Made by a program: the position numbers and the translations under genes. Shown piece by piece: positions 54,921-63,700 of a DNA stretch of 64,000 nt (position 1 is the first letter of the stretch; each line of letters starts with the position of its first letter). Source of the stretch: Scyliorhinus canicula (Eukaryota); contig NC_052161.1 in assembly GCF_902713615.1 (NCBI RefSeq), positions 89,940,236-90,004,235 on the forward strand, written 5' to 3'. The notes beneath the pieces are model-generated. The model made no database searches. It was not told the origin of the DNA and saw only the letters and a list, made by a program, of their open reading frames with translations.

Positions 54921-55305
54921 CTGGATTGGCGATTGATAGGACAGTAGTGAGGGGAAAGGAGAGGATGGAAAACGAGAGGCAGAGTGAGGAACCGAGCGAA
55001 GTGGAGACATTTGTCCGGAGCTCCTGGCATTACCAAGAGCGGCAGTAGTCAGTCAGAGGGTTGAGAAACAAACTGACCAATCCCACAATGACCCAGTAAC
55101 CCCAGACCCTGGCGTTCTTCAAACTACCCGGTCAACAAACCCGCGGAGGGCCGGCCTGGAGTCCTGAGGGAGGGGCTGGGGCCAGAGCCCCAAGGGAGGG
55201 GGGACAGGGTAGAGCCCCGACACGAAGCAGAAAAGCCCGAGGGCGACGGGGTGGTGAGGAAATCCACCATCAATCCCTCACATTCCTCCACCCGCCTGTA
55301 CTTAC

Positions 55306-55422
55306 ATATTCCTCCTCCAGATTGAGGAGATGGTCGACAGCCTCCTCGACATCATCAAGCAGTCCGGTTACAGTCACACATCTGTTATCCCCAGCGTCAG
55401 ACGGGGGGAATTGAATCTCTAC
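55306..55422 (-). CDS. HDLBP: Vigilin-like exon (end of last KH domain); acceptor lies at the edge of an N gap
   Basis: VEIQFPPSDAGDNRCVTVTGLLDDVEEAVDHLLNLEEEY|gtaagt, versus human vigilin VDIRFPQSGAPDPNCVTVTGLPENVEEAIDHILNLEEEY. 117 nt. Confidence 0.88.
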
Positions 55423-55706: not shown

Positions 55707-57265
55707 CAGAGAGAGAGGGACGAAGTGAGAGAGAGAGAGACACGAAGTGAGAGAGGGAGAGACGAAGTGAGAGAGAGAGGCGGAGAGAGAGAGAGAGGCT
55801 GAGTGAGAGAGAGAGAGAGAGTGGGAGTGGAGAGGCGGAGTGAGAGAGAGAGAGGCTGAGAGAGAGAGACGGAGTGAGAGAGAGAGAGAGAGAGAGAGGC
55901 AAAGAGGTGGGGAGAGAGTGTGGTGAACCACTGTACATCTGTATTAGGGGATGTAAGGTAAGACTTGTACTACAGGTTCGCCGGTAGCCCCTGTCGGCTA
56001 GCTCCGCCCACTAGGATCTGTATAAATATGCGTGTCCTCCATTGATCTGCCATTTAGCCAGCTGCAGCAGGAGGCCACGCATCTGACTGCAATAAAGCCA
56101 AACTTGTACCCTGTAGCCATGCTGGCCACGCAAAATGGACACTGAGCCAAACTAAAATGGAAGGCTGCTGAGAAACAGACAGTTCAGCCAGAACAGCAGT
56201 CTGCAAAGAGCAGTTTGCATTCTGCAGCAGCAGAAACCAGTTTGGGCTCAGGTGCAGAGACCTTAGCTAGGTGCAAATGGCAAAACGCTTTGCATGCTAA
56301 TGAGGCCATCAGACTTGAACACCCACACAATAGATACATTTGGTTCTGAATGGACACATTCCAATCAAGACCCAGACATCGAGGCACCAGAAACCTCCGA
56401 ACAAAAGGACATAAGAAACGCCCCCTCCATCACGGAGACCCCCTCGCATTGGGGAATTAATCCAGTATCGATAAGAAATTGATCCAATAGGTAGAGCCCG
56501 CCCGAGAAGAGGGAAGGACAACGGAACCCCTATAAAAGATAGGGACCTCGTGTTGTCCGGTCTGTTAAACCTGTGCTCCGGTCCCGACTGACACCTGGTA
56601 TCCTGACTCCAGCCGTTGAGCACCAGCCGCCGAAACCGTAAGTTCAACGCTCGCTACGCGATCCAAGCCCACTAGACTCCCAAGTGCCAGAACGCTTGCT
56701 GAAGGCTGCAGACAAAACCAGGACGAAGGCCTCGTTCTCTGACCTTGCCTGTTCCTGTTAGATAAGTATTCTGTTTGCTTATGTTTAGTTGTAGCTTAGT
56801 CTCTTAGTGTGTGTGCATGAGTATTTATTATTAACTGTATAATAAATATTGATCGTTTGAACTTGACTAATCGGTGTATAGCTTTTATTCGTTTGAACCC
56901 TTGAGGACCAATAAACGCGTTTTACGCCCATAGTAAAACGTGCAACATTTAGTGGCGACTCTGATGGGACCCTGTTGTAAGTGGAAACACCACAGTGTCC
57001 AGGACCCTGAAATTTGAATTAGAACTCCAAATTGCAGAGAAAGAAAGAGATCACAAGTATTCAAGGTGTTCAAAATAATAAGCGAAATTCGGAAGTGTGT
57101 TTAGTGCATGCGTACTAACAGGGCTGTAAGGTAAAACTGAAAGCTTTTTGTTGCGACAAACTTTCGGTAGTTTTGTAATCGGAAAATAGCGTAAGCCGTA
57201 CCCTTTTCACGAAACACCACCCCAGCAACCCCCTGTTCCAAATTATAAAAAGAGAGTCAGAGGAA

Positions 57266-59314
57266 ATGGCCATGCAGGCAATGGAACGTCTGATGGATCC
57301 AGCAAAGTTTGTGGTCGCAGCGACCAGCAGCAGTAGCAGAGTAGGCCAGTGTCCCACGTGGGAGCTGGAACTCCGCAAATATTTACAAGGAAAGGGATGG
57401 CCCCTTTGGAAAGAGTTTTGTGCAAATGAGGAGACAGGTCCCGGAAGTATAGGTCATACTTGGTGGGAGAACCTCTCTCAGATACACAAAAAGAGTTTAA
57501 GTAAAGCACGCAAGCCGATGGCGATTGTGTCCTGCTTGGCACAGTTGCGAGGCGCAGAGGAGGTTATCAGGACGCTCCGGGCAGATTTAGAGGAAAGGAA
57601 CCGAATGAGTAAGGTCGATGTCAGGGACATCGAGAAAGAAAACCTGGATCTAAAAGGGAAGTTGGCAGAGAAGGGTAGAGAGGTGGATGATGCCAAGAGG
57701 GCTCACCAGTCTTGTCTAGCTCATCTGAACAGTTCCCAGACCCAGTATGAGAAAGCCTATCAGGACGTGCAACGTGCCGTTCTGATAAGACAGGAATCGG
57801 AAAAGCAGGTGGAGGCATTGCAGAGGCAATGCTCTGATCTCAAAGCAGCTTTGAGAGCACTCCACGCTGCAACGACCGAACAAAGACAAAGCACAGTTGA
57901 CCACGCGAAATGCAGAAAACAGATTGCGGAACTGCAATCTCTGCTTTCGGTGCAGAATGGCTTCCAAAGCACCTTTGGAGCTCAGTTAGATGGGGAAAAC
58001 GCCCCAGATTGGCAGGAATTAAGCGAGACAGCGCAGCGTTATGTTCAGGGAACATGTGCGCCCGCAGCTCAGCAGAAACGACAGGCACCCCAACCCCCCA
58101 CAGCTCAGATCATAACCGCACCCATGAATCCCGTAACCACACAGAGGAAAGCCGAATCAGAAGGCGCCCCAGACATAACTTACACCACCCCTTTAACAGT
58201 AACCCAGCTAAGGGACGCTTGTGAAAAGATCACTCCGTTCCTCCCCACCGCAGACCCCCACCAGTTCTTTGCGAAAGTAAAACAGCAGGCTACCATGTAC
58301 GGCCTGGATGAGAGAGAGCAGGTTAAGCTCACCGTGCTGAGCTTAGACCAGAGTGTAGTGGCAGCCCTCCCCGACCCACAAAACGTGGCAGGAGGCAGCC
58401 TAGAGGAGATGCACACTGCTATTTTAGATGCCATCGGGTACAATAGAGGTGACCCCGTAGAAGGATTGAATAAGTGCAGGCAGAAAAGATCCGAACACCC
58501 CACAGCATTCGCAGGAAGGCTGTGGATTCATTTCAGCGCAGTTTTTGGAGAGTTAAATAGAGCGCATTTAACCCGTGAAAACATGATTAAGTGGACGCGC
58601 ACAATAATCTCACACGCGACAGAGGCAGGACAGAATGTCTGCAGCAATTATGACCCCTCAGAGGAGGCCCATAATGAAAAATGGGTCTTGAAAAGATTGT
58701 CCCGCATTTGGCAGCAATCCGTCCACAATAAAACAGCATTTATAAATCCCGAAGAGCAGGCAGATGCAGACATGAATCCAGTTAAAACACATCAAAACCC
58801 CGCATGTGTAAATGAGGGAAGGAACAGCCCACAGCAGATCAAGTCAAAGGAATGTTTTAACTGTGGACAATTAGGACATTACGCTCGAGAATGTCAAGCC
58901 CCCCCGAAACAGCAACAGAATCAGCCCACCAATGCCCCCCGAAGCAGCAATGAAACCAACAGCCCAGACCCCCCTCTCAGGGAACAGTACACAAGGGAAC
59001 AATGCACCAGAGTGCCTGCTCCGCCTTATGTGCCTCAGGGGTCATGTTACAACTGTAGGCAGCCAGGACACTTCTCCCGAGATTGCAGGAGACACCCAGC
59101 ACCAGCTAGACCCGCCCCCAGATATGAAAGAGAACACCACCCACAGCAGCTACAAGGTCCCAGCTTCCCCATGCAAACTATGAGTGCTTACCCACCACTT
59201 CTCATGGCAGGGATACCTCAGCAATGCCAGTTCATTTTTGTTTCTCTCCTTCCCCTCTTCTTCGGTCACACTGCACTGGCTCCATATGCTAGTTACACCC
59301 CCAGCCAAATGTAA
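57266..59314 (+). CDS. gag: Gag polyprotein, intact, 682 aa
   Basis: Uninterrupted ORF after the PBS with a long predicted coiled coil, a capsid-like region and two CCHC knuckles (CFNCGQLGHYAREC, CYNCRQPGHFSRDC). Confidence 0.88.
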   Translation: MAMQAMERLMDPAKFVVAATSSSSRVGQCPTWELELRKYLQGKGWPLWKEFCANEETGPGSIGHTWWENLSQIHKKSLSKARKPMAIVSCLAQLRGAEEVIRTLRADLEERNRMSKVDVRDIEKENLDLKGKLAEKGREVDDAKRAHQSCLAHLNSSQTQYEKAYQDVQRAVLIRQESEKQVEALQRQCSDLKAALRALHAATTEQRQSTVDHAKCRKQIAELQSLLSVQNGFQSTFGAQLDGENAPDWQELSETAQRYVQGTCAPAAQQKRQAPQPPTAQIITAPMNPVTTQRKAESEGAPDITYTTPLTVTQLRDACEKITPFLPTADPHQFFAKVKQQATMYGLDEREQVKLTVLSLDQSVVAALPDPQNVAGGSLEEMHTAILDAIGYNRGDPVEGLNKCRQKRSEHPTAFAGRLWIHFSAVFGELNRAHLTRENMIKWTRTIISHATEAGQNVCSNYDPSEEAHNEKWVLKRLSRIWQQSVHNKTAFINPEEQADADMNPVKTHQNPACVNEGRNSPQQIKSKECFNCGQLGHYARECQAPPKQQQNQPTNAPRSSNETNSPDPPLREQYTREQCTRVPAPPYVPQGSCYNCRQPGHFSRDCRRHPAPARPAPRYEREHHPQQLQGPSFPMQTMSAYPPLLMAGIPQQCQFIFVSLLPLFFGHTALAPYASYTPSQM

Positions 59315-60359
59315 TTTACAGTATCCTTTGTTCTGATGGAACCTGTACGATATTCGTTGCATGTTTGTTTGTATGTGTTTGTTAAATGTTCAGTGTTTAA
59401 ATTTAAACAGCTTTTCACAGACCCACGCCACCACTGATGGAACCTGCACGTATGTTTGTCTTCGTTTTATGTTTGTTTGTTTTCAGGAATGTAAATGTTT
59501 CAGTTGGAGGATGGACATCTTCTTTTCAGCTGAAAAGATTGTGACCACCTCACATACACGTTAGCTTGTCTGCCGAAACTTTTGAGAACTTCGGTTTGAT
59601 TGGAGATCCTTTCCAAAGTTGTAAGGCCACACGCCAAATAGCTTGTCCGCAGATATTTCTGAGAACTTCAGTTGTATCCTCTGGTGAACCGACACGGTTC
59701 ACGACTTGTTCCCTGTTTTCAGAACGGAGCATCTTGGCTCCCTTGGTTTTTTAGGTGCCCCTCTATTCGGCGAAATAGAGGCTGCAAGTCATGGTCAACA
59801 CATTCGTACCCGTTTCTTTCCAGGTTACTCAGGCAGTGGACAAACGGCACTGAGGACCCGCCCTGTCTGAGAACCAACCCTTGGTCAGCCAAGCTCGGGT
59901 ATGGCACAGCACGCCCTACCCGGGGATTCCATCCAACTCATACCCGTAGCGGCCCATACGCAACTCATTCGGATGTTTATTTCCAAGTTTGTTTTTCATT
60001 TTACGTTAGGTAGCCCTTCGGCCACCATCCCACATGCTATTTACATCCGGAAACATTCGGATGGTAAATCAGCAATGCCTGCGAGACGGCTCGCAGAAGG
60101 AAGGATTGTTAGGTGTATGCTGGTCTTTAAATTCGCTTTTTGAAAAAAAAATGAGGGGAGTCACAGGGTGTGACTTAGCCAGTCATTTTAAAGGGTCAAT
60201 TGGGATTTGAAAGACAGATGCACTAACAAGTAAAGGTCTTAAACTGTGTATTGACAGATACTGTGCTTGATCCCAAAGGTTTCAAAGGACGAGACAGAGG
60301 TCGAAGCCAGGATTGTCAATACCGGAGGAAGAAGGAAGAGAAAGAAGAAGAACAGCAAA

Positions 60360-60713
60360 ATGATGGAAGCCCACTTATTACTATTTAATGTCATATGTAT
60401 ATGTGTGGAAACAAGACACGTTTCCCCCACAACCCCCACCGTAAATGTTAGTACAGCAAACCCCCAGTGCTCAGCTCTGATCAGCGAGGTTCAGACCTGG
60501 TGTACTAAATTCATGACGTGGTACTCCATGTCCTACATAATCGAATCACTGTTGGTGATTGCGATCCTCACCATCCTAGTGCAGACCCTCAGGTTGAGGA
60601 AATGGAAGAGGAGAGCCTCTCGTTCCAGCACCTCACCCATCTATAGAGTGCAATCCCCCATCTTCGGATTCCACCAAACCCCTCAACCCCTCACTGATTA
60701 CAACACTCTGTAA
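60360..60713 (+). CDS. Small predicted membrane protein (117 aa from ATG) inside the LTR element
   Basis: Hydrophobic N-terminus LLLFNVICICV, NVS sequon, TM-like YIIESLLVIAILTILVQTL, polybasic RLRKWKRR and C-terminal YNTL. Confidence 0.55.
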   Translation: MMEAHLLLFNVICICVETRHVSPTTPTVNVSTANPQCSALISEVQTWCTKFMTWYSMSYIIESLLVIAILTILVQTLRLRKWKRRASRSSTSPIYRVQSPIFGFHQTPQPLTDYNTL

Positions 60714-63700
60714 ATAAAATTCAGCCATGTATTATATTGTTCCATACTCGACTGCCGAGTTGGGAAGTGTGATGTTGTGGTGTGAATGGTTAAGGTTTAG
60801 AGTGATTAAATGTTTAAGTTAAGTTAAGGTTAATAGTGATAGGTAGAGGTTCCCAATTGTAGTAATGCATGTCCCTTTGACATAGGGCCAAGTAGAAATG
60901 TTAGTTAAATTTTTTTTCTCTTCTTCCCATAGTTTAGAACAGAGTAGAACAGGAACTGGCAAGAGGTCAGAACACAAGGAGGCAAAGTACATAGGTGATC
61001 CTTCACAATAGTATGATTGTGAGGATCACAAGGAGGGAATGTAGCCATGCTGGCCACGCAAAATGGACACTGAGCCAAACTAAAATGGAAGGCTGCTGAG
61101 AAACAGACAGTTCAGCCAGAACAGCAGTCTGCAAAGAGCAGTTTGCATTCTGCAGCAGCAGAAACCAGTTTGGGCTCAGGTGCAGAGACCTTAGCTAGGT
61201 GCAAATGGCAAAACGCTTTGCATGCTAATGAGGCCATCAGACTTGAACACCCACACAATAGATACATTTGGTTCTGAATGGACACATTCCAATCAAGACC
61301 CAGACATCGAGGCACCAGAAACCTCCGAACAAAAGGACATAAGAAACGCCCCCTCCATCACGGAGACCCCCTCGCATTGGGGAATTAATCCAGTATCGAT
61401 AAGAAATTGATCCAATAGGTAGAGCCCGCCCGAGAAGAGGGAAGGACAACGGAACCCCTATAAAAGATAGGGACCTCGTGTTGTCCGGTCTGTTAAACCT
61501 GTGCTCCGGTCCCGACTGACACCTGGTATCCTGACTCCAGCCGTTGAGCACCAGCCGCCGAAACCGTAAGTTCAACGCTCGCTACGCGATCCAAGCCCAC
61601 TAGACTCCCAAGTGCCAGAACGCTTGCTGAAGGCTGCAGACAAAACCAGGACGAAGGCCTCGTTCTCTGACCTTGCCTGTTCCTGTTAGATAAGTATTCT
61701 GTTTGCTTATGTTTAGTTGTAGCTTAGTCTCTTAGTGTGTGTGCATGAGTATTTATTATTAACTGTATAATAAATATTGATCGTTTGAACTTGACTAATC
61801 GGTGTATCGTCTTTATTACTTTGAATTTGACCTTGGAATACTTGTGACGTTGCCTATACGGCAGCTGGCGACTCCAGAGCTTAAATAATTACATAGAACA
61901 GAGCCTAGCAGTGTTAAGCACACGTCGAACTCGGAGGCGTGTTAATACACTCCAATAAACGCGTTTTACGCCCATAGTAAAACGTGCAACAACCCAACCT
62001 TAGTCTTTGTGCAATTGATCGTGCTCAATTTATTGCAGTCAGTTTTTCACCAAGATGGACCTCCGAATCAAACCAGATCGCCTGAAGCTGGATCCACACT
62101 CGCCCGACGCTAGAAAAGACTTTAATCACTGGCTAGTTTGCTTCGAGGCTTACATCAACTCAGTGACCCCCACACCGACGGAGGCTCAGAAGATACAGGT
62201 CTTGTATTCCAGGTTGAGCTCAAGCGTGTTCCCGCTGATCCAGAACGCCCCGACTTACGTCGAAGCCATGGCACTCCTCAAAGAGGAGAAAGTGAACACG
62301 CTCTTCGCCAGGCACGTACTCGCCACTCGCTCGCAACTCCCTGGTGAGTCCATCGAAGACTTCTGGCGGGCCCTAATACCACTAGTCCGGGACTGTGACT
62401 GTCAGACCGTTATGGCCACCGAACATTCTAATCTCTTCATGCGCGATGCGTTCGTAACGGTGTTTGGGTTGGACCTCATCAGACAACAAATGCTGGAAGG
62501 GACCATGCTCGACCTAGCGAAGACAAAAACATTAGCGCTCTCCATGACGGTTGCCTCCCGTAATATTCAGGCCTACCCCTCACGCCGCGCGGCCCACCCC
62601 TCCTATCCCTCCTGGACTCCGCAACTGACCCCCCAGCTGGGGCCCTGCATAGCCAATATTCCTGCGCCACATGCCAATCTGCGCACCCCGGGGGTCCCCA
62701 CTGCTACTTCTGTGGCCAACAGAAGCACCCCCGGCAACACTGCCCAGCTGCGCCGCCACTTGCAAGTCTTATAACAAAAAGGGCCACTTCGCCGCAGTGT
62801 GCCAGGCCCGCACAGTCGCCGCTATCGCCCCCTCCCCCCTGCCTACCGCACAATGTGCACTGCCATCTTCACCTCCTGGGGCCACATGCGGCCAGTGGGT
62901 GCCGCCATCTTCATCCCCTCAGTCCACGTGTGGCCCATGGGCGCCGCCATCTTGTCCCACTCCTGCAATGTGCGCCCCATGGGCGCCGCCATTTTGTTCC
63001 CCGCAGGACCTCTTGTCGCCGCCATCTTGTCTTCCCCACGGGGCAGGAACGCCAACGACATCCCACGACCTGCGCCCCCAACGCTCTCCGTCTGAAACCT
63101 TTGACGATCACCCGCTGCTCGCCTCGATGATGCTGGACCAGTCTCGTCCACACAACCTGGCCACCGCTTCGACAACGGTGAAAATCAACGGCCACGTGAC
63201 CTCCTGCCTGCTGGACGCCAGGAGCACCGAAAGCTTCATACATCTGGATACGGTAAGGCGCTGCTCCCTCGCGGTCCACCCCACCAATCAACGGATCTCC
63301 CTGGCCTCCGGATCCCATTCTGTCTCAATCTGAGGGTTCTGCACAGTCACTCAGTCCAGGGTGTAGAATTCAGCGGTTTCTGTCTCTACGTTCTTCCTAA
63401 TCTCTGCGCTGCACTATTGCTGGGCCTGGATTTTCAGTGCAATCTCCAGAGCCTCACCCTCAAATTCGGCGGGCCCCTACCTCCACTGACCGTTTGCGGC
63501 CTCGCGACCCTAAAGGTCGATCCCCCCTCCCTCTTTGCCAATCTAACTGCGGATTGCAAACCCGTTGCCATCAGGAGCAGACGGTACAGCGCCCAGGACA
63601 AGGCCTTCATCAGGTCCGAGGTCCAGCGGCTGCTTCGGGAGGGTATCATCGAGGTCAGCAACAGCCCCTGGAGAGCCCAAGTGGTAGTAGTTAAAACCGG

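Follow-up and report, generated by a model that had tools for sequence, protein, structure and literature searches.

A young, high-copy endogenous retrovirus (ERV) family of the catshark Scyliorhinus canicula carries a small open reading frame (ORF) where env would be expected, and this ORF is a real, conserved gene of a family that has no env. The copy described here lies in the window, the whole stretch of 64,000 nucleotides that was analysed, where the ORF is found directly before the polypurine tract (PPT) and 3' long terminal repeat (LTR) of an LTR element at 56112-61991. That a small membrane protein stands in the place of env was the original prediction from this sequence, and the protein proves to be genuine and under selection. 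The features of the element, each with its basis or distribution where one applies, are as follows.

56112..56947, + strand: 5' LTR (TG...CA), its U5-side stretch shorter than in the 3' LTR (LTR alignment)
56953..56970, + strand: primer binding site, tRNA-Arg(TCT) type (complementarity to the tRNA 3' end)
57266..59314, + strand: gag, with a coiled coil, a capsid region and two CCHC knuckles (73-77% identical to Scyliorhinus torazame proteins)
58908..59433, + strand: segment standing where other copies have the usual end of gag and the whole of pol (marks a multi-copy pol-less subfamily)
59434..60359, + strand: conserved non-coding region with hairpins, an A-run, an acceptor-like site and a purine tract (alignment, folding)
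60221..60257, + strand: branch-point-like CACTAAC (60221-60227) and acceptor-like ACAG (AG at 60256-60257)
60324..60352, + strand: purine-rich tract, read as RRKRKKK in the subfamily of the window copy and as EEEKKENEEK or R-rich elsewhere
60360..60713, + strand: the small ORF in the env position, whose 117-aa product is predicted to be a type I membrane glycoprotein (translation, alignments, dN/dS)
60528..60614, + strand: predicted transmembrane (TM) helix with the juxtamembrane polybasic motif; no other part of the ORF is as conserved (invariant residues, pLDDT)
61030..61039, + strand: PPT (identical in 16/16 full-length young copies)
61040..61991, + strand: 3' LTR (LTR alignment)

A conserved gene in the place of env

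The frame of the small ORF is open from 60255 to 60713 (+), 152 codons without a stop, and is kept in 30/30 best DNA matches, a sample biased to near-identical copies. Between subfamilies, which share 54-82% amino-acid identity, dN/dS over the whole ORF is 0.19-0.37 (Fisher p 1e-4 to 1e-7, five of five pairs significant, the pairs sharing ancestry and thus not being independent), and two shifted frames contain stops and give values of 0.8-3.7. Because the frame is kept throughout the matches and its dN/dS is low where shifted frames lie near or above 1, the ORF is more than a chance reading frame. For one same pair, dN/dS was 0.21 for the ORF versus 0.08 for gag and 0.09 for pol; within the ORF, divided at a boundary chosen after the alignment had been viewed, the TM-tail part gives 0.08-0.16 and the signal-stalk part 0.3-0.9. 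The original prediction was staked on the ORF not being disrupted in most copies, and it is not: a strict motif test found it intact from Met to tail in 25/32 copies picked by pol alone, and by hand it was intact in 27/31 informative copies of the same set. Among gag-picked older copies, the region is missing in 4/20 and the ORF is intact in 12 of the 16 that retain it, and pol-less copies have kept it in 11 of 12 cases.

The product read from the ATG at 60360 has the features first ascribed to it, namely an N-terminal segment that is hydrophobic (Kyte-Doolittle mean over 11 residues up to 2.3), a stretch rich in Thr and Pro that holds NVS and two cysteines (C37 and C48), a TM segment (19-residue mean 2.2) followed by RLRKWKRR, and YNTL at the end. 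Across copies the product is 113-118 aa long with one strong predicted TM segment, the N-terminal hydrophobic segment is found in every subfamily, and NxS/T is kept in 27/27, 29/29 and 12/13 copies with a start in three copy groups. Two of the ascribed features turn out to be local. Both ectodomain cysteines are present in the window copy, but C48 is the sole invariant one and a second is found in 1/27 L078-like copies; the sorting-type YNTL end occurs in 30/30 youngest copies, but in 0/15 gag-picked older and 0/27 L078-like copies, and no Yxx-hydrophobic motif is conserved at the C-terminus across copies. The tail ends in a conserved SPIF.FHQ. An MG start, as for N-myristoylation, was found in 0 copies in all groups checked, and neither a cystine noose nor a cytosolic di-cysteine is conserved among copies.

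The residues invariant in 9 ORF sequences (W47, C48, W54, Y55, S56, S58, Y59, E62, L65, A68, V74, T76, R78, K81, W82, R84 and R85) are concentrated in W47-R88, and R78, K81, R84 and R85 belong to the juxtamembrane polybasic motif RxRKWxRR. The predicted structure has pLDDT 81-90 at residues 51-80 and 63 for the whole model; residues 76-104, after the basic motif, have a charge-driven hydrophobic moment of 0.5-0.8 and low pLDDT. From its sequence the product is predicted to be, after a cleaved signal peptide, a Ser/Thr/Pro stalk of about 38 residues with one N-glycan, and in the model a Trp/Tyr-rich membrane-proximal helix is predicted to run into the TM helix, with the polybasic motif following.

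A profile search of 1.84 billion proteins returned six matches. Five are Scyliorhinus gene models with the ORF as last exon, labelled from two Scyliorhinus species and three of them from S. torazame, and the sixth is a repetitive chance match. Pfam and PDB sequence searches gave no match to the product, the best ESM Atlas hit (0.87) lay below the threshold for recognition, and a viral fold search with the ORF model (pLDDT 63) gave no E under 1. In the S. torazame models P0129 and P0131, host exons (HEPACAM2-like, PTGER3) are joined to the ORF; such joins would give an Ig protein a viral TM and tail, and may be a prediction artefact or real exonisation.

With a coelacanth Pol as query, 32 copies were selected, and we found no env-sized ORF on either strand of the 2.6 kb downstream of their pol: frames starting with ATG reach at most 113-166 aa there, except in one copy interrupted by a nested family member. 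What separates pol from the 3' LTR is the small ORF, preceded by non-coding DNA of about 1 kb. The 117-aa product has no furin site, fusion peptide, heptad repeats or CX6CC, and no Pfam or profile match. The genome also holds a separate multi-copy gamma-type env family (L132, L142, L150 and others) with open frames of about 563 aa. Residues 1200-1331, which close the Pol model of the frog relative P0006, comprise a signal-like stretch and a weakly matching Ig domain (E 0.012) and may represent a further non-standard gene in the position of env.

The host element and its family

The two LTRs of the window copy align over 786 bp at 99.4% identity, plus the last 40 bp, and the element is flanked by a 4-bp ACCC target duplication (56108-56111 and 61992-61995). 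It is inserted into the LTR of a Gypsy-like element, antisense within an apparent intron of a KH-domain gene (exon 55273-55422, KH_1 E 5e-4). The primer-site match is to an ARAGORN tRNA-Arg(tct)-like genomic sequence, apparently a primer remnant joined to the element's leader. About 116 bases of the 3' LTR (61808-61951) are missing from the 5' LTR (56880-56907); the short form is also the 5' LTR in L087, L093 and L097, 16 other copies have two long LTRs, and the extra 3' LTR stretch contains a second primer-site-like TGGCGACTC.

The window copy has gag, whose product lacks a myristoylation motif at its N-terminus, and no pol. The segment at 58908-59433 is absent from 20 autonomous copies and marks a pol-less subfamily (40/40 scored matches at 97-100%; 951 candidates). 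The gag end of this subfamily (58908-59314) is foreign, has the second CCHC knuckle and a hydrophobic C-terminal stretch, and is open in 9/11 copies where it was detected; the hydrophobic stretch could anchor Gag to membranes. Zebrafish BHIKHARI, as described in the available part of bioRxiv 10.1101/2024.03.25.586437, is likewise a set of gag-only ERVs, multi-copy and with a coiled-coil Gag; it is lokiretrovirus-related with one ORF, whereas our family lies outside the loki-like clade and keeps the small ORF.

Autonomous copies have the order LTR-gag-TGA-pol-about 1 kb-small ORF-LTR. Twenty copies were chosen for their similarity to the ORF region; all are about 9.8 kb long, and 18 of them have an open 1408-aa pol after the TGA. 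Sixteen LTR pairs could be measured, of which nine are identical and the others have at most 2 mismatches or 1 gap, and 4-bp target duplications flank 15/16 young copies. First-look searches with the ORF region gave 1863 candidates, those with gag 13178 and those with an older variant of the ORF 5350; these are not copy numbers. The family is very young and clearly large. Primer sites of the young copies L081-L100 vary among several Arg-tRNA types, and in L223 and L225 half a tRNA-Arg, copied up to the anticodon, adjoins the leader.

Pol contains protease, reverse transcriptase (RT), tether, RNase H and integrase, in that order. Frog and coelacanth elements share 54-57% identity with the RT, loki-like fish RTs 37-39%. 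In a tree of 49 of 121 stored Pol-like proteins, with rows chosen to span labels and snakehead retrovirus (SnRV) not among them, the family groups with the frog and coelacanth rows (support 91/87) and is split from Gypsy plus loki-like rows (96/91). On this tree a lokiretrovirus assignment is rejected; lokiretroviruses have a paramyxo-F-like env, and the family has no env. A viral contig scan for RT relatives found none. SnRV presumably uses an Arg-tRNA primer, as the family does. A comparison by eye only finds long motifs common to the RT and the SnRV row of the supplement to PMC7947760; because of these motifs, the Arg-tRNA primer and the coiled-coil, non-myristoylated Gag, we say that the family resembles SnRV. 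SnRV Gag is coiled-coil and non-myristoylated with one zinc finger, according to the available part of PMC2717909, and the family Gag is similar. SnRV-like ERVs are clade Huo of PMC6001957. Stop-codon readthrough into pol is a further feature in common, but SnRV reads through UAG and has a full env as well as small ORFs of 52, 94, 76 and 205 aa, whereas in our family the readthrough codons are UGA-CGG and the small ORF is present without any env. ERV-Spuma.0-Sca, as given in the available part of PMC10699275, is a different family with another LTR start and an env.

What the small protein may do

Env-independent transfer by a small membrane protein is so far proposed only for insect retroelements, and to our knowledge env-less vertebrate ERVs are held to stay within the expressing cell. 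When an active, env-less family of high copy number keeps a selected membrane protein where env would be, this suggests another route or a further membrane need, and retention of the protein even in pol-less derivatives adds to this suggestion. We consider it quite possible, though short of probable, that the ORF product aids Env-independent cell-to-cell transfer of capsids, like sORF2 of Drosophila MDG1. The small glycoprotein would be made from its own ATG, lose its signal peptide by cleavage and reach the cell surface, where, taking over from an envelope protein, it would let capsids cross between touching cells, such as from the soma into germ cells. We propose a role beyond copying in germ cells because a purely intracellular germ-cell element would need little such protein; since the ORF core is conserved about as well as gag and is kept by pol-less derivatives, a membrane or transfer role is favoured over germ-cell-only copying. 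The idea of transfer or fusion comes by analogy with two systems, Drosophila MDG1 sORF2 and the reovirus FAST proteins.

As described in the available part of PMC11952523, sORF2 of the Drosophila MDG1 group is, like our ORF, a short single-pass membrane protein of an env-less LTR element, with a juxtamembrane basic patch and a short ectodomain, and in some insects it lies downstream of pol. It differs in that it belongs to insect Metaviridae, is 63-107 aa long and mostly myristoylated, and has no signal peptide in that account, whereas our ORF belongs to a vertebrate Retroviridae-type element and encodes 113-118 aa with a signal-like segment and an NxS site. The screen in PMC11952523 covered arthropod Metaviridae and NCBI viruses and required myristoylation; the same text reports that fusion by sORF2 in cultured cells was not reproduced. 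We detected no sequence similarity between our ORF and sORF2.

The FAST proteins (p10, p14, p15 and p22), at 100-200 aa with one TM, a small ectodomain and a disordered tail, are laid out like the ORF product, which shares with the hallmarks given in PMC7412057 the size, the single TM, the juxtamembrane basic cluster and an ectodomain that, not counting the signal, has fewer than about 40 residues. FAST proteins are acylated and type III, without signal peptide or glycosylation according to PMC3952855, whereas the ORF product has no acylation motif, has a signal-like segment and keeps NxS. It thus departs from FAST proteins in signal peptide, glycosylation and acylation, and for this reason we do not class it among them. 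The resemblance is one of layout, as originally put; profile, Atlas and fold comparisons with FAST or sORF2 gave no match. A TM helix followed by basic residues is usual in most type I proteins. We think it rather unlikely that a vertebrate retrovirus lineage swapped env for a small FAST-like fusogen, which spread to thousands of catshark copies by direct soma-to-germline transfer. Were the fusogen reading true, the protein would be a vertebrate counterpart of insect MDG1 sORF2; counting against a fusion role, the stalk evolves fast (dN/dS 0.3-0.9), unlike a fusion peptide.

It is also possible, if on the doubtful side, that the ORF is a minimal env remnant, in which an old internal deletion fused an env signal peptide to the anchor and tail, and which was kept as a non-fusogenic anchor directing Gag assembly or trafficking. 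The env position would fit such an origin, as would the signal, Trp-rich membrane-proximal stretch, TM and tail in env order, the acceptor-like site with its purine-rich tract upstream and a Gag without a myristoylation motif, and elephant shark has SnRV-like elements with env (available part of PMC4422223). Against it, in a comparison confined to env loci of the same genome, 30 loci of gamma type taken from 78 matches bear no resemblance to the ORF (best profile E 1.6; HHalign probability 0.6%); these loci come from other families, with integrases 25-47% identical and no nucleotide match to the ORF's family. The original prediction was also staked on the ORF not aligning as a fragment of a longer env, and neither the profile search nor HHalign gave such an alignment, nor was a longer env-like homologue present among the 1.84 billion proteins.

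A host-modulating accessory protein of the Vpu, Nef or viroporin kind, which would remove or block a host membrane factor or guard the cell against related viruses, is another reading to which we give a fairly low chance. SnRV counts as a complex virus and carries several small ORFs, according to the available part of PMC12193657, the invariant polar Glu at the TM start and the SPIF.FHQ tail motif suggest a protein partner, and Flu M2, at 0.84 and so short of the level of a lead, is among the weak Atlas matches. But an element that stays inside germ-line cells would gain little from such a protein, there is no match to known accessory families, and a conserved Yxx-hydrophobic C-terminal motif is lacking.

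The ORF offers something to test in a vertebrate, as a candidate either for transmission without Env or for a reduced env that has taken on a new role, and its host is a laboratory shark with embryo and single-cell data. Neither this ORF nor any FAST-like protein of a vertebrate ERV turned up in the literature searched, which left subscription journals, Repbase and Dfam outside; repeat libraries or subscription journals may list the family already.

The upstream region and its RNA

The acceptor-like ACAG upstream of the ORF is kept in 16/16 aligned copies. MMTV Rem and JSRV Rej have a basic tract before the hydrophobic segment, and a layout like theirs had been proposed for the ORF, with the frame open back to the acceptor and RRKRKKK within it. 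The open frame and the tract stand for the window copy and its youngest subfamily, but not for older copies. The frame is open back to the AG in 30/30 youngest, 0/15 gag-picked older and 0/27 L078-like copies, and at least 6 K/R in 7 residues occur in frame in 30/30, 1/15 and 0/27 of these; a stop closes the frame 6 codons after the AG in 12/12 older copies scored, and in most older copies the tract is acidic or out of frame, the purine-rich DNA yielding K/R/E whatever the frame. No ATG lies between the AG and that of the ORF itself, and partial reads of three raw-read and two contig runs showed no GT..AG joint. With tract and frame limited to the youngest subfamily and no upstream in-frame start codon, it is most unlikely that a spliced N-terminal extension gives an arginine-rich signal peptide exporting viral RNA, as in a Rem/Rej-like precursor. 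In-frame basic tracts recur in L061, P0126 and P0128, which weakens the case against such a precursor, yet no start codon feeds them.

We give scarcely any credence to the idea that the ORF frame makes no useful protein and is incidental to a conserved RNA element or to recent copying, for although the upstream non-coding region is equally conserved in nucleotides and the SnRV 3' ORF acts mainly in cis (available part of PMC12193657), changes cluster at synonymous sites of the ORF frame alone and indels between subfamilies keep that frame. The non-coding region has 72-93% column identity over L081 7650-8200 in 7 subfamily representatives and local folding z down to -3.4, and by these features 59434-60359 is a candidate internal ribosome entry or RNA export element.

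The small ORF is transcribed. The RNA examined comprised three raw-read runs of the same species label (about 1, 32 and 34 in 100 of each) and two contig runs. In two bulk oligo-dT runs, depth over the ORF was 138 sense versus 4 antisense (X24) and 65 versus 2 (X23), where sense is the strand presumed to be so in most stranded libraries. Sense RNA over the ORF is about 3 to 6 times the pol level, and the rise in depth falls close to where pol ends rather than at 60257; this 3' excess could be due in part to 3' bias or to capture at internal A-runs. Translation may occur by internal initiation on unspliced RNA or from a subgenomic RNA absent from the reads examined.

ATG frames upstream of the ORF lack conservation; the one beginning MLFT at 60037 was rejected as a second gene, as it reaches at least 90 aa in just 1/74 copies. 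Another frame, 2 nt after the AG (60260-60388), has neither a start codon nor a splice junction that we could find; in 11/12 older copies it encodes a peptide of 30-33 residues that stops at the start of the ORF and in most copies has an arginine-rich end.
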